Shown: in pieces, positions 1,774 to 35,205 of the stretch
How positions within the stretch are numbered: position 1 is the stretch's first letter
Layout of the letters: every line of letters starts with the position of its first letter
DNA from: a virus
Taxonomy: Duplodnaviria; Caudoviricetes
IMG/VR virus record: IMGVR_UViG_3300018083_000030
Location: 1 to 62,649 of that record
Direction: 5' to 3' (one strand)
DNA length: 62,649 bases
Translations under genes and position numbers: made by a program
The notes under the pieces: generated by a model
The model's input: only the letters and a program-made list of their open reading frames with translations
The model's database searches: none
What the model was told of the DNA's origin: nothing

Positions 1774-2550
1774 TTACGGATACGGATATCGTACTATCAC
1801 GATGCCCGCGATGCCGCTGCCGCCGAAGTTGCCGCCGTATGCACCCCAGCCGCCGCCACCGTAGCCGGATCCGCTATTGCTGCCGCCGGAGGTGCCGCCC
1901 AGTCCATAGTTGACGGCGGTGCCGGTGATCGAACTCGACCGCGCAGCGCCGCCGACGTAGCTCGGGGCGTTGCCACCAGCGCCGCCGCCGCCGCCGCCGT
2001 AGCCGCCACCGTTCCATTCCATGCCGTTGCCGCCTTGGCTGCCGATGCCGTAGCTGTAGCCGAAATTATTGTACGCGGTGCCGCCGCCGCAGCCGCCATC
2101 CATGCCTCGCTGTGAGTAGTACAGATTATCACCGGCGCTGTTCCACACGCACTGCGAACCGCCGCCGCCGCCGATCGCGGTGCCGATGCCGGCGATGTTG
2201 GAAGACCCGCCGTTGGCTCCGATATAGGTCGCCGGGCCAGCGCCAACACCGCCAGCGCCGACGCCAACCGAATAAGATCCGACGCCGCGCGCTACCGTGC
2301 CGATGAGTATGCCACCGGCCCCGCCGCCGCCGGCATATGCACCGGCGTTGTCGGAATACCCGCCGCCGGCACCGCCGGCCAGGATGAGATAATCGAGCGT
2401 CACCAACCCCGGCGCGGAAACGATGACAAGCGATCCGCTAGTGGTGAACGTGTGGACTCTGAAACCCGTAATGTCGGTGATGACGCCGCCGGTGGCCACG
2501 ACGGGGCCACCTAGCGGAATGCCGACAGGAAGCGGCCCGACCGGAAACAT
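1774..2550 (-). CDS. Glycine-rich tail fibre/receptor-binding-associated protein
   Basis: Likely start ATG 2550 (MFPVGPLP) overlapping the upstream stop. Contains ATGG...HTFTTSG...YLILAGGAGGG...GGGGAGG...GIVIVRY, a glycine-rich phage fibre domain. Confidence 0.7.
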   Translation of the reverse strand: MFPVGPLPVGIPLGGPVVATGGVITDITGFRVHTFTTSGSLVIVSAPGLVTLDYLILAGGAGGGYSDNAGAYAGGGGAGGILIGTVARGVGSYSVGVGAGGVGAGPATYIGANGGSSNIAGIGTAIGGGGGSQCVWNSAGDNLYYSQRGMDGGCGGGTAYNNFGYSYGIGSQGGNGMEWNGGGYGGGGGGAGGNAPSYVGGAARSSSITGTAVNYGLGGTSGGSNSGSGYGGGGWGAYGGNFGGSGIAGIVIVRYPYP

Positions 2551-3044
2551 CAGAGATTGATTCCTTTCGCCGCGCCCACCAGATCGTAGGTCGTTCCACT
2601 CCACCGGAACACGATGTGATCGCGCACAGTGCCGCTCGACCACGTGCTTTGCGTGTAGTTGGCGAGCCCTTTGAAATTGCTGCCGAAGGTAACAGCACCG
2701 GCCGCCGTCATGGTGATCGTGATCGACACGAAGATGCCGACCGCTGGATTCGCCGATGGGTTGGCGATGACGAATGCAGCGGCCACCGCAGCGGTGAACG
2801 CTTGCACCTGGGCGAGCGAGAAATCGGCCGGGACGCTGCTAGCGATAGCAACGGGAGGCGGCGCGATATCGATCCACGTCGCGTTGCGGCGCGCATAGGA
2901 TTTGCCATCGTTCGGTGCCTCGGGCACCGTGTTGCCGACGCCGCCTTGCATCACCCACGCATAGCCGTTGTAAGTGTAGGTCGGACCTCCGGCCGGTGTG
3001 AACACCTGTCCGTTCGTTGGCGAACTTGGAAAATCGAAAGCCAT
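2550..3044 (-). CDS. Small fibre adaptor protein with N-terminal FP.SP..GQ motif and foldon-like motif
   Basis: Start MAFDFPSSPTNGQ (ATG 3044). VPEAPNDGKSYARRNATW resembles the T4 fibritin foldon. Confidence 0.65.
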   Translation of the reverse strand: MAFDFPSSPTNGQVFTPAGGPTYTYNGYAWVMQGGVGNTVPEAPNDGKSYARRNATWIDIAPPPVAIASSVPADFSLAQVQAFTAAVAAAFVIANPSANPAVGIFVSITITMTAAGAVTFGSNFKGLANYTQSTWSSGTVRDHIVFRWSGTTYDLVGAAKGINL

Positions 3045-3045
3045 T

Positions 3046-4347
3046 CTATGCCCCCCAGCGCGAACAGTTGATCGGCACCGGACCAATGAACGGCCCATCG
3101 AAGTTTAGATTCCAGCCGTGATTTTGAAGGTAGGCACAGGCAAGCACCGAAATTTGCATGTTGCTTCCAATCCCCGCGTATGGGCCAAGCATCCCTGTCG
3201 GCGGCGCGGCATTGGGATTGCCGTTGTACGTTGGTGCATTCCAATTGCCGTTGGTTGTGATGTTGCGCATGGCGCACATGCCCAAGCTGGTGTCGATATA
3301 GAATCCCAGCCAATCACCAGACGCGAACGGCGGATAGTTCGCATAGCCCGTTCCGGCGGCGTAAAAAGTTCCTGTACCGCCCCACCCGACCGAATTGGTG
3401 TTTTGTCCGGGGTAATAACTCGACGGGGCCTCAAAGCCCAAATAGGACGCGCCAACCCCAATGATGCAGTTGTTTGAATCGCCCCCGAACGATTGCGCCT
3501 CGAAATACTTGCGGCCGGTGCGCACGTGTGGCTGTGACATGACCGTCCAATAGGCGGCGGTGGCGAAAGTCTTTGTGACGGTCAGATTGTTGTTGCTGAA
3601 CGCAAAGATCGGACCTCCGTTTGCAGCCGGTAGCTGGCGGTGCGGGTCCATGATGGTCTTCGACTCGGCCGCGACCGTGCCGGCAATCGTGGTGCCGGTC
3701 TTGTTGACGCCGTAGAGGTGGAACGTGCCGGCGGTGATGTTGCCGCCGGTGTTCATAATCCGAATCGCGTTGAATGCGCCGGTGTCGAGGATGTAGCTGC
3801 CGCTACCATCAAAGCCGGCGAGGCCATCGGTCGGGTTGCGCAAATGGCTTTTGTAAAAAAACGGTTTGAAGACTCCGGCTATTTGCGGGGTGAAAAATCG
3901 AACGGTGCCGAACACGGAAAATCCTGTTCCCGCCGTGTGCGCTCCCGTGATTTGCAATTGCGCTTGGTTGGCAAAGAAATTGACTGACCCGGCAGCGGCA
4001 TACGGAGCGTAGACTTGGCCCATGTGATAGCTGCTGGCGGCACCCTTGAATGTTGCGCCGCCGTCCTGGCTGATCCTGATCGCGAACGCGCCGTTGGCTG
4101 CACATTGCGCGCCGAAAAAATGCAATTCGTATTCGTCAAAAGTGCCGTCGATTCCCTTTGTGAAATCGACCGCCGCCACCGCGCTCGACACCACGCGCGA
4201 ATCAATCAACACGAGTTGCCCAGCGGGCATGACACCACCCAAGCCGCCGGGATCAATGATCCAGCCCAGACCGTTCCAGCGCCATCGCTTGCCGCCGAAA
4301 TCGTAGGTCTGGCCGACCAGCGGCGAGGCGGGGAAATCTAGCGGCAT
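3046..4347 (-). CDS. Putative receptor-binding protein with C-terminal SPRY/B30.2-like beta-sandwich
   Basis: N-terminus MPLDFPASPLVGQTY..RWRWNG. C-terminus FSNNNLTVT...TGRKYFE...IIGV...NSVGW...FASGDWLGFYID is SPRY-like. Confidence 0.65.
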   Translation of the reverse strand: MPLDFPASPLVGQTYDFGGKRWRWNGLGWIIDPGGLGGVMPAGQLVLIDSRVVSSAVAAVDFTKGIDGTFDEYELHFFGAQCAANGAFAIRISQDGGATFKGAASSYHMGQVYAPYAAAGSVNFFANQAQLQITGAHTAGTGFSVFGTVRFFTPQIAGVFKPFFYKSHLRNPTDGLAGFDGSGSYILDTGAFNAIRIMNTGGNITAGTFHLYGVNKTGTTIAGTVAAESKTIMDPHRQLPAANGGPIFAFSNNNLTVTKTFATAAYWTVMSQPHVRTGRKYFEAQSFGGDSNNCIIGVGASYLGFEAPSSYYPGQNTNSVGWGGTGTFYAAGTGYANYPPFASGDWLGFYIDTSLGMCAMRNITTNGNWNAPTYNGNPNAAPPTGMLGPYAGIGSNMQISVLACAYLQNHGWNLNFDGPFIGPVPINCSRWGA

Positions 4348-4357
4348 GTGATCACCA

Positions 4358-7264
4358 TCATGCTGCGATCTCCATCACCTGAAGCGTCGCGCGTTGCGTG
4401 CCGCCCAGATAGCGATTGGCGGCATAGCCGTTGACGTACACGTTATTGGCAGTGCCAGTTTGAAGATTGCCGTACCGTATTTTGAATGTTGTCGCAGCCG
4501 TAGAGCCGGCCGCAATTTCGACGTCCAAATTCATCGAACAGACATAGCCCGCGCCAGGAGTGGTAACGCAACTCGATGCGATGGCGTTGGCCGTTCCATC
4601 TCTAAACGCCGACACCTGTATCCCAGCGTTCAGGCCGCAAGCCATTGGAGCATTGAAGTGCAGCCGCAGTTTGTTGGTCGCCGCCTTCGGGGAAATCGAA
4701 ACCGTCAGCAATTCCGTCCCGCTCGATTGCTGCGGCACCGCGTCAATGACGCCAGCAAAGACGGCCGACGTGCTGGTGAGGGCGGTATATTCCGCATAGA
4801 CCGATTGCACGACGGTGCCGGCCGCCACGGCGTTGGCCGGCCCGGTTTCGATCCACGTCGATGAAAGCGCGCTAACGTGATAGGTGTACGAAATCCCGCT
4901 GGTGTCATCCAGCCATTGCATGCCCTCGGTCGGTGAAGCGGGCGGCGTCGAGGACACGGTGAGGCCGCCGCCGCCGGTAGGAGCAACACCGCCGCCGCCA
5001 CCGACCGCCACCCATTGCGACGAATTGGCGTCGGTCACGTACAGGAAAAGGATACCGGAATCGCTTTCCCACCATAGCGCGCCAGCGGTCGGCGACGCCG
5101 GTGGCGTGTCCGATATCGTGATCGATGCGCCGCTCGCCGCCGCGAGCGCCGCCGCTATGGCCGCCTGCACGAACGCGGTGCTGGCGGCGGTCGTGTCGTT
5201 GTCGCTGGTCGCCGCCGTCGGCACGCGCGGATCGCCAGTGAACACCGGCGAGGCCAGCGGCGCATAGGCCGACAAGTCAATCGACAGCGTGCCGCTGACC
5301 AGCGACAGCGGCGCGTTGGCCGTGACCACGCCGGCCGGACCCTGCGGCCCCTGGATGCCCTGCGTTCCGGGCGGGCCTTGCGTGCCGGTGTCGCCCTTCG
5401 GTCCCTGTGAACCCGTCGTGCCGGCCGGGCCTTGGATTCCCTGATCGCCCTTTGGTCCCTGTGCGCCCGTCGTGCCGGCCGGACCCTGCGGACCCTGCGA
5501 ACCGGGCGGGCCTTGGATCGAGCCGCCCGACACCCACGCCGTGCCGTCCCAGATCCACAGGCTATCGTCGGCCTGGACGATGTAGGCGTCGCCTTGGGTG
5601 TTGCCGCTCGCCGGCAAGTCCCCCGACGTCGCGACCGACCCTTGCATGGTGATGCCGGTGCCGGCCTCGCCCTGCGCCCCTTGGACACCCTGCGGCCCCT
5701 GCGGACCCTCCGGCCCGGCTGGTCCGGGAACGGTGCTTGCCGCCCCCTGCGCGCCCTGTGGGCCGGTTGGACCTTCCGGCCCTGCCGGACCTACCGGCCC
5801 GACCGTTCCCGGCGTCCCTGGGCTTCCCTGGGTGCCCTGTGGCCCTTGTATGCCCTGCGGACCCGCCGGCCCGGTGCCCCCCTGTGCGCCGGTTGCTCCT
5901 GCCGGCCCGACCGGCCCGACCGGGCCGACCGGCCCCGGTTGCCCGTTGGCGGCCACCCATTGCGTCGAGGTGCCGTCCCAGTAGGACACGTAAAGCGCCC
6001 CGGAATCGCTTTCCCACCACAGCAGCCCGGGGGTTGGTGTTGGCGGCGGCGTGTCCGCAATCGTCACCCCGCCGGCCCCGTCCTCGCCGGCTGGCCCAGC
6101 TGGCCCGGGCGGCCCCTGCGGTCCCTGTGGCCCGGGCGGTCCCGGGACACCCTCGCCGCCGCCGCCGGTGGCGTGGCTGGTCAAGTTGCCCAGCGCGTCG
6201 AGGTACAGCGGCTCGGCGATGGCGAGCGCCAGCGCGTCCTCGGCGTCGAGGTAGAACGGTTTTTTATAGGTCAGCGTGATGTTGGCACCGGTGACCTTGA
6301 CCGGTGGGCTGGCGGTGGGCGGTGCGCCGCCGCCACCGCTAATGATTTGCCCCATCTGGTTTTGCAGCTGGGCGACCGCTGCGCCGACTCCCAGCAACGA
6401 TACGACTCCGTCCTTGCTGGTCGCCTGCCACGGCTTCGTTCCGTCCGGCCCTTTCGCCAGTCCGATTTCGCCGCCCTCGCCGCCTTCGGCGAACGCCGCC
6501 GCCATGTTGTCGTCGTAGGCGTCGAACGTCACCGCGTCCTGCGCTGGTGTCACCGACGCATTGCCGCCGGCCCGGTGATCGCGGGCGTGGTGGATGGCAC
6601 CGACGTAAACGCCACCCGACGCCTCGAGATAGACCTTGCCGTCGACCTTTTGCTTGTGCTCCTTCGTGGCGAATTGCGTGCCGTTCGCCGCCTTCACGTC
6701 GAAGTTGCCTTGGGTGTTGTAGCCCTGGCCCTTGTCGGCGTTGTTCTTGAACACGCTTTTCGTGGTGCCGCTGACTTTCTGGTCCTTGCCGTCCCAGTGC
6801 ATGCCGGCGACTCGACCTGAGTCTTTGGTCTGCCCCGGCTCGGGATCGTCACCGCCGCCACCGTTGCCGCCGCCGGCACCGTTGCCGCCGCCTTTTTTTT
6901 CCTTCTTGTGCCGGATGAACAATTTCTTGTCGTCGGGCGAATAATTAAACGCTTCGTTTTCGTCCGGCTGCGGATGTTCCTCGCGGTCGCCGATCACCCA
7001 CGCCACGACGCGGCGCGATGAATCGCCGCCGACGTCCATCGTGAACACTTCCATTTTTTCGGAAGGCTTGACGTGCGCGACGTAGCCGACCGGGTGCAGC
7101 ACGTCGAGCTTGTCGTTCTCGATCTTGGATCCGGTGATGACGCGAGCGCGTAACAGCTTGCCGTCGTTGTAGACCTTTTTCAGATATCCGCGCCGAACGT
7201 AGTTGCGCACCTTGTGCGACAGGTGCAGCACGTGTTCCCATGATAGCGAGGGATTGCTTGACAT
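4358..7264 (-). CDS. Baseplate central spike (Mu gp45-like N-terminus) fused to a collagen-like fibre
   Basis: N-terminal [10 protein letters not shown]...[15 protein letters not shown]...DRE is gp45-like; follows the gp44 hub gene. Long Gly-X-Y runs and three TPP.SP..G.LWW.SDSG modules. Confidence 0.75.
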
Positions 7265-8386
7265 CTATTCGCCCCCCGACGTCATGCCCGAAGACATGAA
7301 GCTGCCGCCGCCGCCGGCCGATCCGCCTTCCTCGCCGCCGCCGCCCTCTTCGTCGCCGAACGAATCCTTCGGCTTCAATGTCAGCGTGGCGGTGCGCGTG
7401 TCCTTGTCCATGTCGAACGACACGGTCGAGATTTGCAACATGTCGGCCACGCCGTCGACCGGAATCGTGACGTGATGGAGCTTGCCGACTTTCCACAGCT
7501 GGCCGCCGTCGTCGGACCATGTCGACATTGTCAGCGTGACGTCGAGGCCCGCGCCCTTGCGCCGCTTGGCCTCGCCCATGGCGCGCTTTTTCAATGTCTG
7601 TTTGTCGTGATCGGAATCGATGAGCATGTGGAATTCGCGTTTATATTTGACGTAGGGATCCTTGGCTTCGCCGACCAATTCCTCGGCCTCCTTCCCGTAC
7701 TTCTTATCGGTCGGCACCGAATTGCCCTTGGCCTTCACGTCGGAATAGCGCGGCGACATGTCCCGCTTGGTCGACCATTGGAAAAAATTGCGGCCCAGCA
7801 CCAGCGGTTGCCCGCTGCCTTCGTCGCTGCCCTTCTTCGACAGCACGACGTTGCCCTGTTCGTTTTCGGTAAACGTCAGATTGAATTCGCGGCAAGCGCG
7901 GCGCATGGCGCGCTCGACCGACTCCCCCTCTTGGATGATGAAGCGTTCCAGCTGCCGGCTTTCGCCGCTCTTGTCCTCCAGCTTCGGCTCATATCCTTCC
8001 ATTAGTTTTTTGCTGATCTTGCCCGGCGACTTTTTGTTCTCTTGCCCGCTCGGGTGATCGGCGTGGCTGTCGACAATGGACGACGCCAGCCCGCGAAACG
8101 ATATGTCGACGTTGTATGACGAGTCGGATCCGTGCGAGGTGCGGCTGTCAACGCGGAACGTGCACGCCAGCTGCCCGTCGAGCATAAGCACGCCGCGCAC
8201 GCCGTCGATGATGGCCTGAATCGGTGCGGCCGCCGCCGCCGCCATTTCCGCGCCCGGCCAGGAGAACGTGACGGTGCCGCTCGACGTCGCGTCTTCCTTG
8301 TTGCGCTTGAACGACAGTTTCAGAAAGTTGCCGTAGTCGCCGCCGGCAATGGTGATGAATGCGGATCCCGCTAGTTCGTTGGGCAT
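7265..8386 (-). CDS. Baseplate hub (Mu gp44/GpP-like)
   Basis: F.IQEGESV..AMRRAC, LVLGRN...D.SPRYSDV..KG, W.DDGGQLWKVG; Mu gene order gp43-gp44-gp45. Confidence 0.8.
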   Translation of the reverse strand: MPNELAGSAFITIAGGDYGNFLKLSFKRNKEDATSSGTVTFSWPGAEMAAAAAAPIQAIIDGVRGVLMLDGQLACTFRVDSRTSHGSDSSYNVDISFRGLASSIVDSHADHPSGQENKKSPGKISKKLMEGYEPKLEDKSGESRQLERFIIQEGESVERAMRRACREFNLTFTENEQGNVVLSKKGSDEGSGQPLVLGRNFFQWSTKRDMSPRYSDVKAKGNSVPTDKKYGKEAEELVGEAKDPYVKYKREFHMLIDSDHDKQTLKKRAMGEAKRRKGAGLDVTLTMSTWSDDGGQLWKVGKLHHVTIPVDGVADMLQISTVSFDMDKDTRTATLTLKPKDSFGDEEGGGGEEGGSAGGGGSFMSSGMTSGGE

Positions 8387-8389
8387 GGG

Positions 8390-9652
8390 TCAACTCGCCG
8401 GTGCGACTATCTCGCGGCCGATATAAAACGGCACCATGTGCGTGTTGTAGCTTTCGATTTGCTGGTATCGCCGGCCGTCGACGTAGAGCTTGTGCGACAC
8501 CACGACCGACGGCCATTGCCCGTGAACCGACGACGTGACGATGCCCGGCAATCGAATGTTTTTCATCAGGATGCCGCGCGCGGCGTCGGCGCGAGCTCGC
8601 CTGATAGCGGTCACCAGCACGTCGTAGCAGCTGCGCGCCGCCAGCAACTCTTCGTCGTCATACACCGCCATCACGAAATCGAGCGCCAGGATTGCCTCGG
8701 ACACGCTTTGGTAGGTCGACTGCGCCGCCGTCAGCGCGTAGTCGCGAATCAGCGATAGTCGCGCCGCGACGATCAGGCTTTCGACGCTGGCGGTGCCGTC
8801 GGCTTGCTCGACCACGAATGCGTTGAATGCGTGCAATCGCTTCATGGCGTCGAGGTGCAGGCGTCGAATCGTTGCAGTGCCTTCGGTGATCGGTGCCACC
8901 ACGCCGTCGAATGTGATGTAACCGGCCTTTGTCACCGTGACGTCGAACGTGGCGGTGCTGTCGTCGGGCGTCGATCCGGCATAGGGAATCGCCGACCATT
9001 GCCGCATGGCTTGGGGCGCTGGCATGGCGAGCATTTCCAGCGTGGTCGCCGGCATCGGCTGGGCGCGACCCTCGAGCACCGATATCACGTCGAACGATTC
9101 TTCGTCGCTGGCCGGCGCGACCAGCGTGGCGAGGTTTAGATCGATGGCGCGTGCCGCCTCGACCGCGTTGGCGTTGGCGTTCCACGTGGCGCGCAGCTTC
9201 GACGCTTCAATGGCCGCCGACCCCGATTGATACATGGAGTCGACCGACGACCCCATCAGATACGGGGCCATGCTCGAATGCGCTTCGACGAAATCGAAAT
9301 CGAGCTTCGTGCGCTTTATGTCTTTGCGATAGTCGGCCGACATGCGCAGCGTGACGCATGCGACTTGCTGGCCGCCGAACATGGGGTGCACCAGCGTGCC
9401 GGGCTGTGGCGATTCCGCCGCCCGCGCCATGCGCGCCGACTGTTCGATCTGATCGGACCCGATGAGATATCCGGTGACCTTAAAGCGCCGGATCTTGCGC
9501 CCCAGATCCTTGTAGCCGGTGTCTTCCGACAACGGGTATTCATACTGGTCCCCGCGCCGACCGAATTCATCGTCGGTCGTTTCGCACAGGAACGGAACGC
9601 CTTTCCACGAGGCGTCGCGATAGGTCGGGATTTCGCAACCGGGTGCTGCCAT
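8390..9652 (-). CDS. Mu gp43/GpN-like DNA circularisation / tube-initiator protein
   Basis: RDASWKGVPF...GRRGDQYEYP...YKDLGRKIRRF...PGTLVHPMFG is the characteristic N-terminus. Confidence 0.9.
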   Translation of the reverse strand: MAAPGCEIPTYRDASWKGVPFLCETTDDEFGRRGDQYEYPLSEDTGYKDLGRKIRRFKVTGYLIGSDQIEQSARMARAAESPQPGTLVHPMFGGQQVACVTLRMSADYRKDIKRTKLDFDFVEAHSSMAPYLMGSSVDSMYQSGSAAIEASKLRATWNANANAVEAARAIDLNLATLVAPASDEESFDVISVLEGRAQPMPATTLEMLAMPAPQAMRQWSAIPYAGSTPDDSTATFDVTVTKAGYITFDGVVAPITEGTATIRRLHLDAMKRLHAFNAFVVEQADGTASVESLIVAARLSLIRDYALTAAQSTYQSVSEAILALDFVMAVYDDEELLAARSCYDVLVTAIRRARADAARGILMKNIRLPGIVTSSVHGQWPSVVVSHKLYVDGRRYQQIESYNTHMVPFYIGREIVAPAS

Positions 9653-9655
9653 GGC

Positions 9656-12082
9656 TTAGGGTGCGTCCGTTCCGTTGGATGGTTTCGCAGCGGCACCGCC
9701 GCCGCCGCCGCTGACAGTGGAGCTTACAGCGCCGGACACGTCCACTTTGACGTTCACGGTCGTGGCGCTGATAATACCTGCCGCCGTCGTTCCTATCTTC
9801 GATCCAATAGCGCCGCCGTCGACCGACGAATTGAACGCCCCGCCGGCCTCGCTCCCCTTGCCGCTCAAACCCGATCCGGCCGCGTCGTTGAACGTCTGCG
9901 CGGCTTCGCCGGCTTTTGTCGTCAGATTCTGGCCAATCGAATCGATGCCGAGTTGTTCTGCCGCGCCCGGCGCAGGCTTCGGCCCCTGCCCTGGCAAGAA
10001 TGGGCCTTCTTGCTCGCCGCGCGCCCGGCGTTCGTCGCGTTCCCGCTGTTCCCGCCTTAGCAGATCGGTCGATGTTTCGAACGGCTTGAATCCCGGGATG
10101 ATCTGGCCAACCGTGTTGATCATTGTTTTCACGGCGTCGGTGATCGCGGTGCCGAGGCCGGAAAACAGATTGGGCGCGGTGGCCTTGATCCCGTCGATGG
10201 CGCTGGTCACGCCCTCCGAAATCATGGTGCCGATTCCGCTCCATAGATCCTTTTGGTTCTGCCACGCGCTTTTGAGTCCCTCGCCGATGGCCGGCCCGAT
10301 TACGTCGGTCCACACCGCCTTTTGATTGTCCCACGCGCTCTTGAGTCCTTCTGTGAACCTTTCTTTGAGTCCCTCCCATATAGTTTGATCCGGTGTGGCG
10401 ATTGCGCCTCTAACACTGTTCCAAATAATGTCTTTAAGCTTGCCAAGCTCGGTCCCGATATCTTCCACTTTCAGGTTTTGCAGATAGTCGCCGACCACCT
10501 TTCCCGCCGCTTTGAGCTTGTCGGTCGGAATCATTTTCAGCAGTTCGGTGCCGACGTCGAGCGCCAGCCGTCCGATGTTGCCGACAATCTGCGAATAGAT
10601 CGGCGACAGCTGCGCGCTGATATCGTTTTTTGCCGCCTGAAATCTGGTCGCCGCCGGCGTGGTGATCCGTCCAATTGCTTCGTCGCGCTTTTGTGCGATT
10701 GCGCGGGCCTTGAATTCCTCACGCTGCAATGCCGCCGCTTGTTGCTCCAGTTGCTTCGACGTGGTCTTGGGCACCACCTTGTCGAAAGAATCGCTGACGG
10801 CCGCTAGTTCGTCCCTGAATTTTTTTGCCTCGCCCCTCGGTAGACCGCGCACCGCGTCGGCCAGCGGCTTGCCTGCGAACAAGTCGAACGACTTGTCGAA
10901 CGCATGCAGCTTTTTTTCTAGCGCCGCCTTTTGCTTCGGCGTTTTCGCCGCGTTGATCTTGTCTTCGAGTTCGAACCGTTTGTCGGCGATGCGGGTGAGC
11001 ACGCCGGTGGCGTCGGCCTCGCCCTTCTTTTCCATCTCGGCCATGGTCTTTTTGTCGAGGCCAAGCGTGCTGAAGATTCCTTTGTCGCCCAGGATTCCCT
11101 TTTTGCGTTTCTGATCGGTGAGCAACCGGGGCAACCGGTTTTCGAATCCTTCCGCTTTGTCCCCGAACAGCTGGTCGCGCAGCATGTCGCGGTCGGCGAT
11201 TTCGTCCACGGTTTTGCCTTGGGCCTTGGCGCGGCCCATGTTGTCCCAGATGTTTTTCGCGCTCTTGCTGGCGGCGTCGATGCCCTTATTCGCCGCCCAC
11301 GCGCCGACCGCCAACGTCCCCGCTGCCGCCGCCAATGCGCCGACAGCGACCGCCGCACCGCCCAGTATCGTAACCACGCCCGCGCCGACGCCCAGCCGCG
11401 CCGCCAGCCCCATGCCCCCGGCCGCGCCCTCCGCTACACCGGCACCGCCTATCGGCGGCAAGCCCATGGCTTCCCGTTTCGCCAGTTCCTTCTTATTGAG
11501 CGGCATGCGCGCCGCCGGCGGCTTGGCGTAGCGGGCGCGAATCTCTTCGTCGGTGCCCTGCGCGTTGCTGAATTGGCGCAGCTTGCGAATCATCTTGTCG
11601 GTCATGCCGGTGGCGACCGCCTCCGGCGCGGCGAATGCTTCCTTGGGGCGGGCCATCACCTTTGCGACCGCCGCTTGCGCCTTGGCAATTCCCCCGGTGA
11701 CGGTCTGCAACGGCGCGACCGCCTTGGCGAGGATCGATTGCCCCTCGCCGATCTTCCCCATCAACTTGCCGGTGATGGCCTGCGTCGCACCGACGGCCGC
11801 GACGGTCTTAGCAATGCTGGCTTGTTGGCTGGCGGTCTTTTCCACCACCTTGGCGGTGACAACCCCGGCCGCGATGGCGGGCGCGATGGCGCGCTTGACG
11901 GCAACGTGTGTTGCTGCGGTCGATGCGGCCAGACTGCCAATGCCGCCCTTGCCGCCGCCGATTCCGATCTTGCTGGTGCCGCCCGCTGCGGCGAGCTTTT
12001 TAAGATCCGCCATCAATTTGCGGATCTTGTCTTCACCCTCGACGGTGACGATTAATCTGGCGGTAGAGGTAACGTCGGCCAT
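9656..12082 (-). CDS. Tape measure protein (808 aa)
   Basis: Ala/Gly/Lys-rich helical protein with a hydrophobic segment and Trp-periodic repeats (GLKSAW.NQK..W); lies between the chaperone and gp43. Confidence 0.85.
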   Translation of the reverse strand: MADVTSTARLIVTVEGEDKIRKLMADLKKLAAAGGTSKIGIGGGKGGIGSLAASTAATHVAVKRAIAPAIAAGVVTAKVVEKTASQQASIAKTVAAVGATQAITGKLMGKIGEGQSILAKAVAPLQTVTGGIAKAQAAVAKVMARPKEAFAAPEAVATGMTDKMIRKLRQFSNAQGTDEEIRARYAKPPAARMPLNKKELAKREAMGLPPIGGAGVAEGAAGGMGLAARLGVGAGVVTILGGAAVAVGALAAAAGTLAVGAWAANKGIDAASKSAKNIWDNMGRAKAQGKTVDEIADRDMLRDQLFGDKAEGFENRLPRLLTDQKRKKGILGDKGIFSTLGLDKKTMAEMEKKGEADATGVLTRIADKRFELEDKINAAKTPKQKAALEKKLHAFDKSFDLFAGKPLADAVRGLPRGEAKKFRDELAAVSDSFDKVVPKTTSKQLEQQAAALQREEFKARAIAQKRDEAIGRITTPAATRFQAAKNDISAQLSPIYSQIVGNIGRLALDVGTELLKMIPTDKLKAAGKVVGDYLQNLKVEDIGTELGKLKDIIWNSVRGAIATPDQTIWEGLKERFTEGLKSAWDNQKAVWTDVIGPAIGEGLKSAWQNQKDLWSGIGTMISEGVTSAIDGIKATAPNLFSGLGTAITDAVKTMINTVGQIIPGFKPFETSTDLLRREQRERDERRARGEQEGPFLPGQGPKPAPGAAEQLGIDSIGQNLTTKAGEAAQTFNDAAGSGLSGKGSEAGGAFNSSVDGGAIGSKIGTTAAGIISATTVNVKVDVSGAVSSTVSGGGGGAAAKPSNGTDAP

Positions 12083-13263: not shown

Positions 13264-15042
13264 TTACACCGGCGGGATGCACGAGAACTCGGGTGCCACG
13301 TCAATCGAGGTGGCGATGCGCGCGAGTTGATTCACGAGATCGAGATCGATCATGACGTTCACGCGATTCGGATCGCAGTTGTTGAACGTGTTGGTGCGCT
13401 CGACCCGCACCATCTTTTCGAGCGTTTCCGACGTGGGCTCGGCGGTCCAGCCGAACTGCGTGCCACGCATCCACGCGATGATGCTGGCTTGCAGGATGCG
13501 CGGAGTCACCGCACGCTTGCCCTGCGGAATCCGCGTGCCGTCGTTCATCAGCGACACGCTGGCGTAGTTGTGCCGATACCAGTTGCCCAGATCGCGCACG
13601 AACTTGACCGTGGTGTAACGCGACTCGACGCGCTGCCAAGCGCCATCCGGTGCGCCGGTGTTGGGATCGTACTTGTAGGTTGTCAGCGGTTCCTCGATCC
13701 ACAGCTGGGTGTTGCGCAGGCCGCGCGAGTTGGCGACGTCCCAGTTCATGATCCCGGCGTCGTAGAAGGCGCGCTTTTCCGCCGACGTCCAGATGGTCGA
13801 GCATTGCCGCGCGTCGTACAGGAAGCCCAAGAATCCGTTGTCGTATTGCACCGGCCGCGACGGGTCATAGCAAGCGGTGCAGCACACCCGCGACGTGGTC
13901 GCCGCCGCCAGCACATAGCCGGGATACTTGTAACCGGTGCGCACCGGAACAACGACTTCCTCCGGGTTGTTGCGGTCGCGACCATAGGCGGCGATGGTGC
14001 CGGCGCTGGCGGTCTTGCTGTGGAAGAGATGCCCGCCCTTGAAGTTGCCTTGCACGCCGCAGCGCCAGTTCTGCCGCACCAGCTGGATGAACGCTTCGAT
14101 GGCGATTTCTTCCTCGGTGCCCAGACAGATGCAATCCCATGGGCAGTTCATCGCCGGAATCGCCGTGGTGTACTCGATCACGCCGGCCCCTTCGTCGCCC
14201 TCGGCCTCGGTCACGGTGATGCCTTCGGGGATTTCGTCGCCGAACTGCGGATTCCACACCGGCACGAACCAATTGCTTTGAATGCCGGCATTCTTCGCCG
14301 TGAGCGTGACCACCGACCCGGCGGCTTCGGCGGTGAACGGCAGATCGATATCGGCATTCAGCGCCGCCGCATAATCGGTGGCGATAATGTCGGACGTGGT
14401 GCCGATGATGACGCCGATGTTGAAAATCTTGTCGATGATCGACCACGCCAGCACACCCGAATTCGTGCACGGCCCGCCGAACGTGACGGTGTAGGTGGCG
14501 GCCACGCCGCCGGCTGCGCCCCATGTCAGATTGAACGTCGCACCTGTGCCGATGCCGGTGGAGGACACTTGCGCCACCGGGTTGGTCGGATCCGGCGCGC
14601 CCTCCGCAATGTGGCCGGCCTTCGAAATCGACGTGGTGGCGATTGCGCCGGCGGTGACGCTGTCAACCTTCAGCTGCACGCCGTCGGGCAACGTGACGAT
14701 ATCGTTGACCACGTAGCCGGTGCCGGGTGCAGCAATGGCGGCGGCGGAAACGCCCTTGCCTTGCGATGGATCGGCGAGCGGCGCGCAGTACAGCGGCAAC
14801 TCGGGACAGGTGTTGAAATGCTGTTCGGCCATCAGCGACATCACCGAACCGGCACCGAATAGTTCGCGCGATTCCTGTACCGAATAGATGATGTAAAACT
14901 CGCCGATTTCGGCGGTGCCTTCGTCGGTCATTTGCGCGATGTAGAGCGGCCGGCAAAGCTCGGCGAGCGGCATGTAACCGGTGACGCACCACGTGAGGAA
15001 ATTGCCGCGAGCCTGTGCGAGAGAGATTCGATTCTGTGCCAT
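13264..15042 (-). CDS. Contractile tail sheath protein (Mu gpL-like)
   Basis: ELFGAGS, DLPFTAEA..VTLTAKNAG..N, DPSRPVQ, TTYK...G.PD, VTP.IL, VER....PNRV motifs. Confidence 0.9.
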   Translation of the reverse strand: MAQNRISLAQARGNFLTWCVTGYMPLAELCRPLYIAQMTDEGTAEIGEFYIIYSVQESRELFGAGSVMSLMAEQHFNTCPELPLYCAPLADPSQGKGVSAAAIAAPGTGYVVNDIVTLPDGVQLKVDSVTAGAIATTSISKAGHIAEGAPDPTNPVAQVSSTGIGTGATFNLTWGAAGGVAATYTVTFGGPCTNSGVLAWSIIDKIFNIGVIIGTTSDIIATDYAAALNADIDLPFTAEAAGSVVTLTAKNAGIQSNWFVPVWNPQFGDEIPEGITVTEAEGDEGAGVIEYTTAIPAMNCPWDCICLGTEEEIAIEAFIQLVRQNWRCGVQGNFKGGHLFHSKTASAGTIAAYGRDRNNPEEVVVPVRTGYKYPGYVLAAATTSRVCCTACYDPSRPVQYDNGFLGFLYDARQCSTIWTSAEKRAFYDAGIMNWDVANSRGLRNTQLWIEEPLTTYKYDPNTGAPDGAWQRVESRYTTVKFVRDLGNWYRHNYASVSLMNDGTRIPQGKRAVTPRILQASIIAWMRGTQFGWTAEPTSETLEKMVRVERTNTFNNCDPNRVNVMIDLDLVNQLARIATSIDVAPEFSCIPPV

Positions 15043-18401: not shown

Positions 18402-18596
18402 TCACCGTCGACAGGGCACGGTTAGAGTCGCGATTCGCCGTTGGACGTAAAGCGTTGGGATGCGACGCTGTGAAACCAGCACAGCGCCGCCGCACGGTTG
18501 CGGTGAAGTGGCGAGCGGCTGTCGGGAGGACGATTGCCACCGCTCGCCGTTGGCCGGCATTCGGTTGCTAGGATACGAAACCGGCCAAGCACGCAT
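18402..18596 (-). CDS. Small hypothetical protein
   Basis: Tiles the operon between adjacent genes. Confidence 0.4.
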   Translation of the reverse strand: MRAWPVSYPSNRMPANGERWQSSSRQPLATSPQPCGGAVLVSQRRIPTLYVQRRIATLTVPCRR

Positions 18597-18599
18597 CGG

Positions 18600-18761
18600 T
18601 TACCTGCGAACCTCTTGCCGCCTTTCGGAGTCGCGTTCCTCCTTCTGGGCCGCAAACGTCGTGGTGCCCGTCGTGGTGCACATGCACGGCGACGGGAAAT
18701 AGTCGAGCGCACAGGGCGGCCCGGCCGCCCCGCATGGTCCGAAACATCGCGAAGTCATCAT
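18600..18761 (-). CDS. Small Cys-rich hypothetical protein (53 aa)
   Basis: MMTSRCFGPCGAAGPPCALDYFPSPCMC...; ATGA overlap with the upstream gene. Confidence 0.5.
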   Translation of the reverse strand: MMTSRCFGPCGAAGPPCALDYFPSPCMCTTTGTTTFAAQKEERDSERRQEVRR

Positions 18762-19006
18762 GACTCACCTTCCTTTGCTTTGGTCCGCCGCAAGTCCATC
18801 ACCAGATCCACCGGTTCATCGTCCTTCGGCTTATCGTCCAGATCTTCCGGTTTCACCTGTTTGGCCAGCCCGCGCTTGATCATGTTGGATCCGGCGAAGT
18901 CCGGCACCGCGTAGACCTCGCCCGGCGCGTATTCGGTGACGCTGATTCCGTTGTCGAGCGAATAGCGCACGTGCTTGTCGGCGATGATGCGAACCAACAG
19001 AGTCAC
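18758..19006 (-). CDS. Small post-capsid protein
   Basis: GTGA-coupled start; YAPGEVYAVPD...MIKRGLAK is typical of small genes after HK97-type capsid genes. Confidence 0.6.
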   Translation of the reverse strand: MTLLVRIIADKHVRYSLDNGISVTEYAPGEVYAVPDFAGSNMIKRGLAKQVKPEDLDDKPKDDEPVDLVMDLRRTKAKEGES

Positions 19007-19383
19007 CGCATGGCCTCCAACTCTACAACGTAGCCGGCGCAATCCTGTTCGCTGGCCTTGTCGTTATCCTCGAATGGCAGCACCCGGAGCCAATCGGCGA
19101 TGTGCCGACGATAGATCACCTCCGCGTCGCCCTCGACCTGATCGACCAGAAATCCGCCGCGCACCGTGCCGGCGACCTTGTCGACCAGCGTGACCGGATC
19201 GACCACCCGCCCGTTCGACAGGTTCGACACCTCGCACCACGACAGTTCGTCGGGCACGCCGTCGAGATCGCGGGTGTGCTGCAAGCGGAATCGGGCTGCG
19301 CCCTGCCCGCGAAATACTATGCGCGCCGCCTTGCCGGGGACCGGTTGCGGGGTGACGGTGCCGTGGTCATAGAGAACATTCAT
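19003..19383 (-). CDS. Hypothetical virion protein, possibly a distant decoration paralog
   Basis: Start MNVLYDHG; FRLQH...SW...WLRV layout resembles the two upstream proteins. Confidence 0.5.
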   Translation of the reverse strand: MNVLYDHGTVTPQPVPGKAARIVFRGQGAARFRLQHTRDLDGVPDELSWCEVSNLSNGRVVDPVTLVDKVAGTVRGGFLVDQVEGDAEVIYRRHIADWLRVLPFEDNDKASEQDCAGYVVELEAMR

Positions 19384-19388
19384 CCGAC

Positions 19389-20030
19389 TCACATGCCGCT
19401 GCGCCGCAGGCGCGTGACCACCGCGATCAAGTCGAGCGCCGTGGCACCCTGCGAGAAAATCCGAATGAATTGCTTCGGGCACGACACCGCGATGCTGCAT
19501 TGAGAGTGCGCCTTCAGCGGACGTTGCGCCGAAAACGTGATCGAGGCGTCGCCGACGTCCACCCAAGTGAGGTTGAACGTGGCCCCGGTGCCGCCGCCAG
19601 AACTCGACACCTGGGCCGCCGGATTCGCCGGGGCCGTGCCGGTGATGCTGCCCGGATTGGCAATCGTCACCCCGGTGACCGCGCCAGCGTTCACGGTTGC
19701 GACCGTGAGCACCACGCCGTTCGCCAGCGTGATGGTGTGGCCGACGGCATAGCTGGCACCGCCGGCAACGATGGCCGCCGCGTTGACCTGTTTAGTCGCG
19801 ACCGCCGGCATCGGCGAGCAGTCGGGCAGGATTTGCAGCGGTGCCCACGATCCGGGCACGCACGCATCGTTCGCCGACGCATCGGCACCCTGCACCGTGT
19901 AGGTGCCGGTCACGATATCGCCGGCCGTCTGGTTCGCCAGCACCAGCGCGTAGGCAATGCCCGGGCTTATGTCGGCGAACTTGGGCGACAACACATTGTA
20001 GGCCAGCACCGTGCCCGCTGCGGATACCAT
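19389..20030 (-). CDS. Putative capsid decoration protein paralog with an inserted beta domain
   Basis: Clear paralog of 20038-20439 (SAAGTVLAYNV.SPKFADI...KAHSQC..AV.CPKQF.R) plus a ~75-aa insertion. Confidence 0.65.
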   Translation of the reverse strand: MVSAAGTVLAYNVLSPKFADISPGIAYALVLANQTAGDIVTGTYTVQGADASANDACVPGSWAPLQILPDCSPMPAVATKQVNAAAIVAGGASYAVGHTITLANGVVLTVATVNAGAVTGVTIANPGSITGTAPANPAAQVSSSGGGTGATFNLTWVDVGDASITFSAQRPLKAHSQCSIAVSCPKQFIRIFSQGATALDLIAVVTRLRRSGM

Positions 20031-20037
20031 CGCGACC

Positions 20038-20439
20038 TCACATCCCGGTGCGCTTCAATCGCGTCACCACTGCCAGAATGTCGAGCGTGCCAGCGGTGCC
20101 GGCCACCCGCACGAATTGCTTGGGACACGCGACCGCGAATGCGCATTGCGAATGCGCCTTGATCGGGTTTTGCGCGTCCACGGTGATCACCGCATTCGGC
20201 GCACCCGTCCCCAGCGGCGGCGAGCATTCCGGCTCGACCTTCAGCGGTGCCCAGACATCCGGGGCACACGGGTCGTCGGCCTTGGCATCGGCACCCTCGA
20301 CGGTGAACGTGCCGGTCGTGACGTCGGCGGCGGTCTGATTCGACAGGATGATGGCATAGGCGTGGCCCACGCCAATGTCGGCGAACTTCGGCGAGGCGAC
20401 GTTGTACGCCAGCACCGTGCCGGCTGCGCTAATGGTCAT
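20038..20439 (-). CDS. Putative capsid decoration protein
   Basis: Directly after the major capsid gene; beta-rich, 133 aa. Confidence 0.65.
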   Translation of the reverse strand: MTISAAGTVLAYNVASPKFADIGVGHAYAIILSNQTAADVTTGTFTVEGADAKADDPCAPDVWAPLKVEPECSPPLGTGAPNAVITVDAQNPIKAHSQCAFAVACPKQFVRVAGTAGTLDILAVVTRLKRTGM

Positions 20440-20470
20440 GGGTTAGCCTCCTGTTTCGAGTGTGCGCCGA

Positions 20471-21814
20471 TTAGCCGATCCGCATAAGGCGAGCGGCGTT
20501 CGGGCAGATCGGTGCACCGCCGATTCGTGCTTCGAACTTGAACAGCACGCAGAAGCCCGCCGAATAGGGATCCTGTTGCATGGTGACCGCCTTGCGGTTG
20601 ACCACCATATAAGCCTGTTGCCAGTTGCCGTATGCGACCGGCGTTGCGCCAGCGACCACGTCGGGCATCTGATTGGCGATCACGACCGGCGAGCCGGCGA
20701 CGATGTATTGCCCGGCGACCAGCGGCGAGGCGATCATGATCGGCCGCCCCATGGCGTCCGACATGGTGAGCGTCAAGCCGAACGTGTTTTGATTCATCAG
20801 GTAGGCACCGCCCGGTCCCTGGAAATTCTGCGGGACGGTGTATTTCAGCAGCACCAGATCCTGCCACGTGAATTGCGCAGCTGGCGTGCCCGCGCCGGTG
20901 TCGCAGATCGGAATGCCGGAGCGCAGCAACCCCAGCGGCTTGCCGACGCCGTCACCCGATACGATGGCTTGCGAGATCTGATTGCGGTAAGCGCGATTGA
21001 CCTTCTGCAACAGCCACGACTCGATGTTGACGTTCGCGTCCTCCAGCAAGTCCCGCGACGTGCAGACGATATAGCGCAGCGACTCCGGCTTGATTTCGAC
21101 TTCGCCCAGCCCCTCGCCGATTTGCTGCGTCGGGTTGTTGGCGAAACACTGCGACTCGCAAGCCCACGCCGCCGTGTCCCAAATTTCGTTGTCGACCATG
21201 AATTTGACCGACGGCCCGCTGATCGTGATGTTCGCCATCAGCCCGGTAATGTCGGTGACGTCTTCGATGCACGATAGGATCGTGCTCGACATTTCCGGCG
21301 CGAGGAAGAAGCCGGTTGATCCCAGATTGAACGACGACAACGCCTTGCGCTGATCGTCGGGCAACTCGGAAATGTTCGTGCAGTGCATCAGGTTGCGCAT
21401 GGCCTTGATCGCGATGCCGGCCTCGGTCACCTGATCGTCGGTGTAAGAGAACGGATGGTCGCCGCCGCGCTTCGTCACCCGCGCATAGTGCTTGGTTTCG
21501 AGCAAGGCAACGGCCTGTTCTTTCATCGTGTCTTTTTCATCGCCGCCGCCGGGGCGCTGAACTTTTTTCGACAGCGAGTTGATGGCCTCTTGCAAGCCTT
21601 GCAGCTGGGCCACGTGCTCGGCCGCCTCCTTCACGATGCGGTCAAGCTTGGCCTCGGTTTCGGTGTGCGTCTTCGACCCGTTGGCAATATCTTTTTTCAA
21701 TTCTTCGAACGTCGAAGCACGCGCGGCGTCGGCCGTTGCCAGCGCCTCGCTTTGCTTTTTCACCTCGGCCTGCACGTCCTTCAACAACGTCTGTACGGTT
21801 TCCTCGATGGTCAT
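20471..21814 (-). CDS. Major capsid protein, HK97 family
   Basis: N-terminal coiled-coil delta domain; GFFLAPE, SRDLLEDA, GDGVGKPLGLL, DPYSAGF..FK..ARIGG. Confidence 0.95.
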   Translation of the reverse strand: MTIEETVQTLLKDVQAEVKKQSEALATADAARASTFEELKKDIANGSKTHTETEAKLDRIVKEAAEHVAQLQGLQEAINSLSKKVQRPGGGDEKDTMKEQAVALLETKHYARVTKRGGDHPFSYTDDQVTEAGIAIKAMRNLMHCTNISELPDDQRKALSSFNLGSTGFFLAPEMSSTILSCIEDVTDITGLMANITISGPSVKFMVDNEIWDTAAWACESQCFANNPTQQIGEGLGEVEIKPESLRYIVCTSRDLLEDANVNIESWLLQKVNRAYRNQISQAIVSGDGVGKPLGLLRSGIPICDTGAGTPAAQFTWQDLVLLKYTVPQNFQGPGGAYLMNQNTFGLTLTMSDAMGRPIMIASPLVAGQYIVAGSPVVIANQMPDVVAGATPVAYGNWQQAYMVVNRKAVTMQQDPYSAGFCVLFKFEARIGGAPICPNAARLMRIG

Positions 21815-22509
21815 GGGACGCGCCTTTCTTTGACGTCGTGCAGGAGTGCCTTTAGCGCGGCGGCCAAGGCGGTGAGTCGTTCATCGTCGGAGTCCCTGCC
21901 GTCCGATGCCTTGAATCCATCTATCTCGGTTATATCGATTCGGCGGTGATCGCCGAATCCCTTGCGCAATACACTCTCGACGTCGCCGTCGGTCCAGCCG
22001 TTGTCGTGCAGCCAGTCCCGCGTTTGCTCGCGGGATAGACTCTTGACCGCACTCACCGTCGCACCCGGATTCGCCGGCAGCGATACGATGCTGCATTCGA
22101 TCAACGATGCGCGTTTGATGGTGCGGACCTGTTTGCTGTCGTCCCAGCTGGCCCCGCCCGGTTCGATCATGAAGCCTACGGAAAGCCCGTCAAGGAAACC
22201 CTGTTTCATCAGGGCGTGAGTCTCGCGGCCCTTGTCGGTCAAAAGCGAAATCGCGCCTTCGACCTTCAGATACTTGCCGTCCTGTTCGAATTTTTGCCAG
22301 CCGCCGATCAAGTGCTCGCGGTTGTGGTCGCGAAACATCTTGACCTTTTTCGGCGTGATGCTGCCGAACGCGCCGGCTTCGATAATGTCGCGAGCGCGAT
22401 CACGCTCGGCTGTTGATGCGATTCCGGTGAACGATGCACGGTCGGCACCGTCGGCAATGGCTTTCGTTTCGAAGCCAGCTTCGGACCACGAGAGATCGTG
22501 AATCAACAT
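21811..22509 (-). CDS. Prohead protease, HK97 family
   Basis: DRARDIIEAGAF...DH...LDGLSVGF...LIECSIVSLPANPGATV. Confidence 0.95.
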   Translation of the reverse strand: MLIHDLSWSEAGFETKAIADGADRASFTGIASTAERDRARDIIEAGAFGSITPKKVKMFRDHNREHLIGGWQKFEQDGKYLKVEGAISLLTDKGRETHALMKQGFLDGLSVGFMIEPGGASWDDSKQVRTIKRASLIECSIVSLPANPGATVSAVKSLSREQTRDWLHDNGWTDGDVESVLRKGFGDHRRIDITEIDGFKASDGRDSDDERLTALAAALKALLHDVKERRVP

Positions 22510-22612
22510 GATTGCCCCGCGCTTCGCTGGCGCGGACGGCACCGCAGCCCAGCGCCACAGCGGGGGACACTATGCCAAAAGCCGGAAGGGCGCAAATACT
22601 TACCGGAGACTG

Positions 22613-35185: not shown

Positions 35186-35205
35186 TCACCCCAGAAAAAG
35201 GACCA

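Follow-up and report, generated by a model that had tools for sequence, protein, structure and literature searches.

The window analysed here is the whole 62,649-nucleotide (nt) virus record IMGVR_UViG_3300018083_000030 (Duplodnaviria; Caudoviricetes), and the subject of this report is a run of four open reading frames (ORFs) that begins with the gene of a central tail spike related to gp45 of phage Mu. The source is an uncultured temperate phage with a contractile tail that is known from metagenome contigs alone. The 62.6-kb record was rated 98% complete by CheckV and is listed as 'linear'. Its genes include those of a tyrosine integrase and of a contractile sheath, besides a Mu-like baseplate block and genes of side fibres. 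The four ORFs and their neighbours in the baseplate block lie on the minus strand. A gp44-like baseplate hub gene, the expected partner of the spike (7265-8386; PF22255 E 2e-7, phrog_177 E 6.7e-54), is followed by the 968-amino acid (aa) spike-fibre ORF (4358-7264), by ORFs of 433 aa (3046-4347) and 164 aa (2550-3044) and by a glycine-rich ORF of 258 aa (1774-2550), the frame of which was counted from an ATG sharing 1 nt with the stop codon before it. The gp46-like baseplate wedge gene (1130-1762; PF07409 E 1.6e-12) is the downstream border of this cassette. The spike gene therefore sits between the gp44 hub gene and gp46, with three extra genes before gp46. An earlier note on this DNA had proposed that the spike carries a collagen stalk onto which secondary adhesins dock, and the analysis followed up its claims.

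The central spike and its collagen fibre

The Pfam family of Mu gp45 (PF06890, Phage_Mu_Gp45) matched the 968-aa protein at E 0.012-0.029 and 14.8-15.9 bits, below its cut-off of 24.1, which taken by itself speaks against the assignment. Because of this sub-threshold score, an alignment of 38 relatives was built and used to predict the structure of aa 1-365 with AlphaFold2 (AF2). The model was that of a monomer, and we infer the trimer. Its predicted local distance difference test (pLDDT) values were above 90 at aa 20-125 and between 95 and 80 at aa 145-220. The best Foldseek match was to gp45 as solved in the Mu baseplate (chain 9ki1_V, E 2.2e-7, an alignment of 191 columns). P2 gpV (3qr8, E 2.7e-4) was matched as well, as were the spike proteins from phages 7-7-1 and Milano and members of the VgrG family. 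By AF2 and Foldseek, the first ~220 residues adopt the Mu gp45/P2 gpV central-spike fold. An N-terminal oligonucleotide/oligosaccharide-binding (OB) fold of the gp45/gpV type (aa 1-125; 6890..7264) is followed by an extended beta-helix (aa 146-235; 6560..6829) that was delimited by pLDDT, Foldseek and the alignment. Mu gp45 and P2 gpV have the same OB-fold and beta-helix, and their position after the gp44 hub is the same.

A spike profile had a single match in the 98%-complete record, namely the 968-aa ORF, and neither a second gp45-like gene nor a PAAR gene was found there. Since the protein has the spike fold and the record has no other candidate of either kind, it must be the tail spike. 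On the predicted structure, it is a genuine gp45/gpV-type central spike and the only one of this phage. A tblastn search of 50,697 deposited phage records with the spike N-terminus returned no match.

The motif H-A-x-D-H is conserved near the end of the beta-helix in the 38-relative alignment and reads IHHARDH in the window. An HxH motif is described for the Milano, P2, phi92 and Mu spikes (PMC10811340), and the window spike has H-A-x-D-H in its place. From its sequence, the replacement site may bind metal. With the usual HxH iron site replaced, a metal-capped tip is only a possibility, which is a point against the spike assignment.

While the Mu and P2 spikes are ~160-210 aa long and have a metal-capped end, the chain of the 968-aa window spike does not end at a sharp HxH tip and runs on for ~730 residues past the spike apex into a collagen fibre. 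The first segment is a neck (aa 236-368; 6161..6559) with GGGG hinges, in which low-confidence AF2 models predicted helices at aa 290-308 and 344-364. Next come collagen run 1 (aa 369-401; 6062..6160; 11 G-X-Y triplets), a hairpin module that we call TPP module A (aa 402-440; 5945..6061) and collagen run 2 (aa 441-537; 5654..5944), in which 23 and 8 triplets are separated by one 4-residue break. A GDAYIV... node (aa 538-584; 5513..5653), a third kind of hairpin unit between collagen runs, leads to collagen run 3 (aa 585-647; 5324..5512; 21 triplets). It is followed by a tail-fibre neck motif (aa 648-715; 5120..5323), found through the match of aa 647-709 to the solved tail fibre 9k09_A (E 5.4e-6) and to several tail-fibre PHROGs. 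TPP modules B (aa 716-756; 4997..5119) and C (aa 771-811; 4832..4954) precede the C-terminal head (aa 812-968; 4358..4831). The G-X-Y runs proper (aa 369-401, 441-509, 514-537 and 585-647) add up to 11 + 23 + 8 + 21 = 63 triplets, and Pfam Collagen (PF01391) was matched at E 2.4e-16 (59.7 bits vs a cut-off of 27.2). Collagen rises by ~0.29 nm per residue, and the 63 triplets would give a fibre of ~54 nm if they were fully triple-helical.

The three repeated modules are where the earlier note had placed them. A TPP profile built from 43 module copies had three matches in the 968-aa ORF and none elsewhere in the record, at E 1.7e-18 for module A (match at 5936-6058), 1.3e-20 for module B (4997-5113) and 2.4e-15 for module C. 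Identity to module A is 55% for module B and 38% for module C. The GDAYIV... node is near-identical in the relatives P0002, P0003, P0007 and P0009.

The head bears a weak resemblance to tumour necrosis factor (TNF) and Pgp3 domains and is presumed to be the receptor-binding tip. Pfam Chlam_vir (PF05475, the Pgp3 C-terminal domain) matched it at E 5.3e-5 and 23.5 bits, the cut-off being 25, and it also matched PDB entries 6gjt_A (E 0.024) and 1wck. A collagen stalk with a TNF-like trimeric head is known from BclA of the Bacillus exosporium and from C1q-type proteins. The window protein would share this combination. It differs in that hairpin nodes break up the stalk, in that the stalk grows out of a phage spike and in that the likeness of the head to Pgp3 is weak. 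The fibre is quite probably present on the virion and binds a receptor.

The continuity of spike and collagen was checked by aligning Logan contigs, which are assemblies and not raw reads, over the region. A contig from run X1 covered 4724-6827 with 0 differences, and contigs from run X2, which is another sample of another study, covered 5950-7700, 5010-5832 and 4282-4994, also with 0 differences. The spike-to-collagen step (~nt 6160) is thus bridged in two samples. What runs X3 and X4 contain (shares of 0.26 and 0.15) are just pieces of the gene or related genes, and one 1752-nt contig of a soil relative in X4 runs from the spike part into the collagen part. These data are weakened in that the listed X2 pieces leave nt 4995-5009 (15 nt) uncovered, that assemblies drop rare variants and that X1 may be the source sample itself. 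In the soil relative, ~90-95% identical to the window, the stretch from 6023 to 6114 is replaced by 750 different nucleotides, so that a likewise fused gene has a longer insert where collagen run 1 meets module A.

Relatives of the N-terminus formed 45 clusters among 1.84 billion representative proteins. The distant clusters have the length of Mu gp45-like proteins (140-210 aa), and the closer ones include proteins of 698, 698, 746, 818 and 1704 aa. All six long relatives (P0007, P0002, P0004, P0005 and P0009, of 698-1704 aa, plus P0003, of 868 aa) continue into collagen, and most of them then end in tip domains such as Gly_rich_2, which terminates P0003 and P0004, or Peptidase_S74, a self-cleaving chaperone domain, at the end of P0005. 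The spike-collagen fusion put forward in the earlier note is contiguous in the contigs of both samples and recurs in relatives, and the 968-aa ORF looks real. Another database protein of the family, P0008 (484 aa), is arginine/serine-rich and apparently out of frame past its collagen run, a sign that, in the spike-fibre family, the DNA that codes for collagen may give rise to frameshifts in part of the assemblies.

Central spikes that carry extra enzyme or effector domains on the same chain are known from the 'evolved' VgrG proteins of type VI secretion and from T4 gp5. The window protein likewise has extra parts on the spike chain, its addition being a long receptor-binding fibre. No description of a gp45-type spike fused to a collagen fibre was found in the literature outside subscription journals and supplements, and a term search of the Milano, 7-7-1 and XM1 structure papers found no collagen or central fibre on the spike.

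The mosaic cassette downstream of the spike

The 433-aa and 164-aa proteins share an N-terminus, as had been noticed before. Both begin with M(P/A)(L/F)DFP(A/S)SP..GQ...(W/Y).(W/Y)NG..W and match a profile of this start, here called the DFP hairpin (aa 1-35), at E 1.6e-16 and 5.1e-18. In the 433-aa protein, the hairpin is followed by a beta-sandwich (aa ~40-215) and a SPRY-like domain (aa ~230-433). The SPRY-like end that the earlier note had seen in this protein is weakly supported: Foldseek found SPRY matches at E 2.3e-4, but Pfam SPRY (PF00622) stayed below its cut-off (E 3.3e-4, 21.2 bits vs 26.3) and the confidence of the model was low (mean pLDDT 59.6, domain pLDDT 30-68). The 164-aa protein consists of the DFP hairpin, a foldon-like hairpin (aa 38-59) and a 95-aa C-terminal domain. 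Its foldon-like motif, also claimed earlier, is in a similar position, since Fibritin_C (PF07921) does match aa 38-59, on profile positions 68-89 of 93, but with a score below the cut-off (E 0.031, 14.9 bits vs 21). The 258-aa protein behind them does not have a DFP start and is a clear member of Gly_rich_2 (PF21722, E 3.3e-12, 47.3 bits vs a cut-off of 24.3), in agreement with its description as glycine-rich. Among deposited phage records, the 433-aa protein had one weak match, to a Pelagibacter phage (E 2e-4), and its sole relative among viral contigs is encoded by the contig L003.

Four related contigs were compared with the cassette. In L004, a distant relative (56% identity), a 263-aa spike is followed directly by gp46, with no ORF of at least 140 aa in between; the claim that the three genes are inserted between gp45 and gp46 is borne out by this arrangement. 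The other three contigs, L001-L003, are 86-90% identical in the spike part and have spikes of ~420-442 aa with a single short collagen run, beyond which the chain terminates in the tail APLDS(G/S)LYVW. In L002 and L003, a foldon-like hairpin stands between the collagen run and this tail. The short spike is followed by two genes with a common 115-residue start, MILLTS..., that had no Pfam match (L001:10043-13209, L002:2456-6822 and L003:9194-12963, spike included). Both the APLDS(G/S)LYVW tail and the MILLTS genes are missing from the window, and the MILLTS pair looks, from its sequence, like an alternative pair of adaptors.

The distal parts of these proteins correspond to those of the window. 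Residues 5-398 of the window spike are 85% identical to the 442-aa spike of L003, and aa 772-968, which comprise module C and the head, share 86% identity with the C-terminal part of another protein of the same contig, a separate MILLTS protein of 490 aa. The 164-aa protein's C-terminal domain is 59% identical to the end of a 324-aa MILLTS-collagen protein of L001, and both domains of the 433-aa protein terminate a 691-aa MILLTS protein of L002. Thus, one and the same tip may be joined to the spike itself, follow a MILLTS start or follow a DFP start, as expected of exchangeable receptor-binding tips and attachment adaptors. By this comparison of sequences, the receptor-binding cassette made up of the three genes that separate gp45 from gp46 is a mosaic, with tips that are exchangeable among relatives, and the DFP proteins are quite probably receptor-binding proteins of the virion.

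DFP and TPP units, and how the DFP proteins may attach

Other viruses have the DFP N-terminus too. When MxxDFPxSPxxGQ was searched for as a degenerate DNA pattern, at least 127 viral stretches matched, with 115 distinct proteins among the matches listed; by our own estimate, ~5 matches are expected by chance. Nearly all of the matches listed continue, by reading, with W.W.G..W, which the pattern did not impose. Fibre-type Pfam domains were found in 23 of the 54 full-length DFP proteins and none in the other 31. The tips include collagen, S74, Gly_rich_2 (6 of the 54 proteins), Collar, pectate lyase, CBM and other domains. No Pfam family covered the DFP N-terminus in the 54 proteins, save for one weak and probably spurious match, and a Pfam scan of isolated TPP modules and DFP N-termini returned no family. 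Against PDB sequences, both profiles produced noise only (DFP: 8 matches, best E 0.26; TPP: 5 matches, best E 0.52, to MHC chains). From these sequence matches, the DFP N-terminus is a widespread building block of phage fibres, which is new. The TPP module is equally widespread and occurs in the tail fibre genes of 86 deposited phages, nearly all of them cyanophages.

The earlier note had treated the N-terminal 'anchor' and the 'modules' as two different things, a distinction that is not upheld here. An hhalign comparison of the DFP and TPP profiles gave a probability of 88% and E 3.2e-6, and the two hairpins are probably homologous on this evidence. The DFP profile also matches the GDAYIV... 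node weakly (E 0.0014). The two units often occur in one polypeptide, DFP first and TPP 40-60 residues later, and all six P..P..G..[WYF] sites of the cassette are DFP/TPP-type units or the foldon-like motif.

The TPP profile was present in 15 of 15 DFP-bearing viral records that were searched whole. Within the clade of the window, profile searches found both units in the window and in L003 and neither in L001 (100% complete), L004 (88%) or the fragment L002. Gene order was analysed in 80 loci chosen for DFP and 79 chosen for TPP, with 2 kb on each side and TPP units identified by profile search. In the DFP-chosen sample, TPP was present in another ORF only (39 loci), in another and the same ORF (10) or in the same ORF only (8), and absent from 23; wherever it was in another ORF, that ORF was upstream on the same strand (49/49). 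A DFP start was found in 34 of the 79 TPP-chosen loci, 30 times downstream, twice upstream and 6 times in cis before TPP, and one locus may count in more than one of these classes. Taken together, the TPP-fibre lies upstream of the DFP gene on the same strand in 79 of the 81 ordered cases. Cultured phages have the arrangement as well. Phage S-TIP28 has a tail fibre (gp49) with a T7-type start and TPP, followed by a gene (gene 50) that starts MALNFPISPSVGE and continues into a foldon-like motif, the same N-terminal layout as in the 164-aa protein, and the same TPP/DFP gene pair was found in Synechococcus phage MA01 (WVQ00187 and WVQ00188).

In the upstream ORFs, the last TPP module lies more than 150 aa from the C-terminus in 37 of 51 cases, which fits an attachment to the side of the fibre better than an end-to-end one; with such a long remainder, the upstream fibre would have its own tip, as it does in the window. 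A joint in which DFP proteins prolong the upstream fibre at its C-terminus, end to end, was considered and rejected. It fits 12 of the 51 ORFs, those with the last TPP within 60 aa of the end, and fails in 39 of them and in the window, where 157 aa follow module C.

Lateral docking was then modelled as a complex of three copies of spike aa 700-968 and three copies of aa 1-40 of the 433-aa protein. The median score was 0.41 (runs 0.39, 0.54 and 0.41) against 0.00 for the best of 3 controls, a result rated 'weak support'. The pLDDT of the partner was at least 67 and at least 76% of the contacts were common to the runs; the output named no interface. The mark had been calibrated on solved complexes, 116 of 157 of which reached it, and on mismatched pairs, of which 2 of 215 did; scores up to 0.60 were those of 18 of the 157 solved complexes and of both passing mismatches.

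Several observations weigh against docking. By the calibration, a weak score such as this one is more often wrong than right unless the pairing is likely beforehand, and the run used custom alignments and 3+3 chains, unlike the calibration. DFP and TPP are found in one chain in 18 of the 80 DFP loci, which fits plain structural nodes better, as do the 13 TPP modules, ~125 residues apart, of a 2334-aa ORF (~18415-22878 (-) in record G004, the contig of L012) that precedes a DFP gene of 168 aa. The TPP nodes border on collagen, a place in which a mere registration node would be sensible. There is no TPP within 2 kb in 23 of the 80 DFP loci and no DFP within 2 kb in 45 of the 79 TPP loci, and the gene order could come from the fission of one modular fibre gene with no lateral docking. 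Docking through a DFP start does not account for the attachment of the glycine-rich 258-aa protein, which has no such start. Finally, the invariance of the D, F, P, P, G and Q residues says nothing of their conservation, since the search pattern imposed them.

The docking of secondary adhesins proposed in the earlier note fits the gene order and the weak pass of the predicted complex; no interface was obtained, and other attachment sites would fit the same data. Lateral seating of the DFP proteins on the TPP nodes of the fibre is, in our judgement, a tentative proposal that falls somewhat short of an even chance. The best overall explanation of the locus is a central, spike-rooted receptor-binding fibre, probably branched by DFP proteins, to which we assign a probability of about 0.62. 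More doubtful than the docking itself is its extension, in which TPP node and DFP hairpin would be the socket and plug of widespread, undescribed branched receptor-binding arrays; as part of this reading, and just as doubtful, contractile- and short-tailed phages of water and soil would use them.

The most serious alternative accepts the fusion and takes the DFP, TPP and foldon-like hairpins for trimerisation or registration nodes. The DFP proteins would attach elsewhere, held as short separate fibres by the wedge proteins gp46-48 or by the hub, and the TPP-then-DFP order would result from the fission and duplication of modular fibre genes. The probable homology of the two hairpins agrees with it, as do their occurrence in cis in the DFP loci already mentioned and in the collar protein of MA01, the ORF with 13 modules, the position of TPP nodes beside collagen runs, where a registration node is useful, and the TPP loci with no DFP gene nearby. 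All six P..P..G..[WYF] sites of the cassette share what we take to be the pattern of the T4 foldon, and the foldon tag of PDB 7u6r scored at noise level (1.1 bits) against the DFP profile. Against nodes of this kind stand the very strong direction of the gene order, the TPP units in every DFP-bearing record searched whole and the weak pass of the predicted complex with controls at 0.00. In addition, the tip of many DFP proteins follows at once on the hairpin of ~35 residues (Gly_rich_2, for example, from aa 38-48), which leaves no other attachment domain. On balance, we regard this alternative as unlikely, though as one to be reckoned with.

It is improbable that the long fibre is cut off or shed at assembly or infection, or that the 164-aa and glycine-rich proteins are assembly helpers. 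A fibre leaving the spike apex would be awkward for piercing, the four runs of at least four glycines in the 968-aa protein could be exposed linkers, and P0005 ends in the self-cleaving Peptidase_S74; yet a Pfam scan of the 968-aa protein found no autoproteolytic, protease or S74 domain, and S74 domains remove only themselves. The idea of helpers draws on another glycine-rich protein of the record (58398-59561), which matches phrog_863, labelled 'tail fiber assembly'. The 164-aa protein's C-terminal domain and the glycine-rich domain are, however, the C-terminal ends of long fibres in relatives, and this position at the end of collagen or spike fibres indicates a tip rather than a free chaperone. 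As for an assembly or frameshift artefact that would have joined a short spike gene to a separate fibre gene, the short spikes of L001-L003 with the same tip on a separate protein and the error-prone collagen-coding repeats (P0008 being apparently out of frame after its collagen) count for little beside the identical contigs of two samples across the junctions, the six relatives fused alike and the single fused contig of the soil relative, and we consider it very improbable.

The spike-rooted, branched fibre was also compared with known branched systems. Two reports on Klebsiella phages describe anchor-branch systems with a T4gp10-like branching domain and a conserved N-terminal docking peptide (PMC6872550, PMC13352976). 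The likeness is one of layout only, a primary fibre gene followed by secondary proteins with a short conserved N-terminus. No T4gp10-like domain was seen in the Pfam and PHROGs scans of the 968-aa protein; what could serve as its socket is a hairpin node of 40 residues that is akin to the plug, and the primary fibre is a contractile-tail spike. A second system is that of the DUF2793 proteins of DMS3/JBD Pseudomonas phages and of Rcc00171 of RcGTA, which have a conserved N-terminus and variable tips, are encoded just downstream of the central fibre gene and are proposed to attach to the particle by their N-termini (10.1101/150227, PMC5026251). The conserved N-terminal domain is ~100 residues long (10.1101/150227). 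The DMS3/JBD-type phages have non-contractile tails, unlike the window phage. The 164-aa protein resembles the DUF2793 protein of HW12 over the hairpin and the foldon-like motif at an E of only ~0.8, and the HW12 protein does not start with the DFP motif. Pfam DUF2793 (PF10983) matched neither DFP N-terminus at E up to 10 and touched only module C of the spike, at E 0.41. All things considered, we rate the spike-fibre as a variation on known spikes, on spikes with extended domains and on branched receptor-binding systems.

Genome context and proposed working of the fibre

Upstream of the hub gene, the minus strand encodes the tape measure (9656-12082) and a gp43-like protein (8390-9652; DNA_circ_N E 2.2e-24), and downstream of gp46 it encodes gp47/Baseplate_J (2-1114). 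The left end of the record cuts gp47 (1-1114), and a gp48-like gene stands at the right end (61658-62649), which indicates a circularly permuted, nearly whole genome. The tail sheath (592 aa; 13264-15042 (-)) has a first ~175 residues that lie outside the sheath profile and match the head-decoration family phrog_9703 weakly (E 2.8e-7). The wedge proteins (2-1762 and 61658-62578, (-)) are rich in cysteine. The N-terminal extension of gp46 contains CAPPKPVC...PECSPPTCPQEC, and cysteine-rich stretches are found in gp47 (CVEECEGCCDPQ) and in the gp48-like protein of L001 (CRVPDGCCGPSPCD). These proteins recall the disulfide-linked baseplate of Agrobacterium phage Milano, as reported for that phage (PMC10811340).

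The side-fibre block (58398-61609 (-)) encodes the side fibres at 59558-61609, with a 683-aa fibre that has a Peptidase_S74 chaperone end. This side fibre is followed by a 387-aa protein (58398-59561) with a second Gly_rich_2 domain. With one glycine-rich gene after the central cassette and another after the side fibre, each fibre set has one behind it. The tyrosine integrase is encoded on the plus strand (34999-36366 (+); phrog_1 E 3.7e-65), and a PHROGs scan of 18 large ORFs found no transposase of the Mu type, so that integration and not transposition is expected despite the Mu-like tail genes. As for the host, a first scan of 185,579 species genomes had no match, and a profile scan of the same genomes found one weak stretch in a Sterolibacteriaceae metagenome-assembled genome (41% identity over 28 residues).

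In the working that we propose, the trimeric spike would be seated under the gp44 hub, and its three chains would leave the apex of the beta-helix as a thin trimeric collagen fibre with hairpin nodes and glycine hinges, ending in the TNF-like head that would bind a surface receptor. Because the fibre is continuous with the spike chain, the piercing device would include, by covalent linkage, a central fibre that is long and thin. It is most likely this central fibre that would touch the host surface first, and it would act in addition to the side fibres and guide the spike to the point of contact. The 433-aa and 164-aa proteins would add specificities, probably as branches. DFP trimers would attach to the upstream TPP-bearing fibre, which is here the central fibre, to give a branched structure with up to three specificities. 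On contraction, the spike may be driven along its own tether, and we suppose that the fibre buckles at the GGGG hinges or leaves with the spike.

Contractile tails are regarded as having central spikes that are short, sharp and rigid needles. Here, a nearly complete genome has a single spike, and from it springs a collagen fibre of ~50 nm or more that would carry a binding head. This fusion poses the testable question of how a needle that trails a rope from its point can pierce a membrane. Hundreds of viral contigs contain the DFP/TPP pair, as do the cultured cyanophages S-TIP28 and MA01, in a nearly fixed gene order. If the two units are a docking pair, they would help to read the host-recognition modules in environmental phage genomes. 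If they are indeed plug and socket, one central line would bear up to three adhesins and lead the spike to its target.

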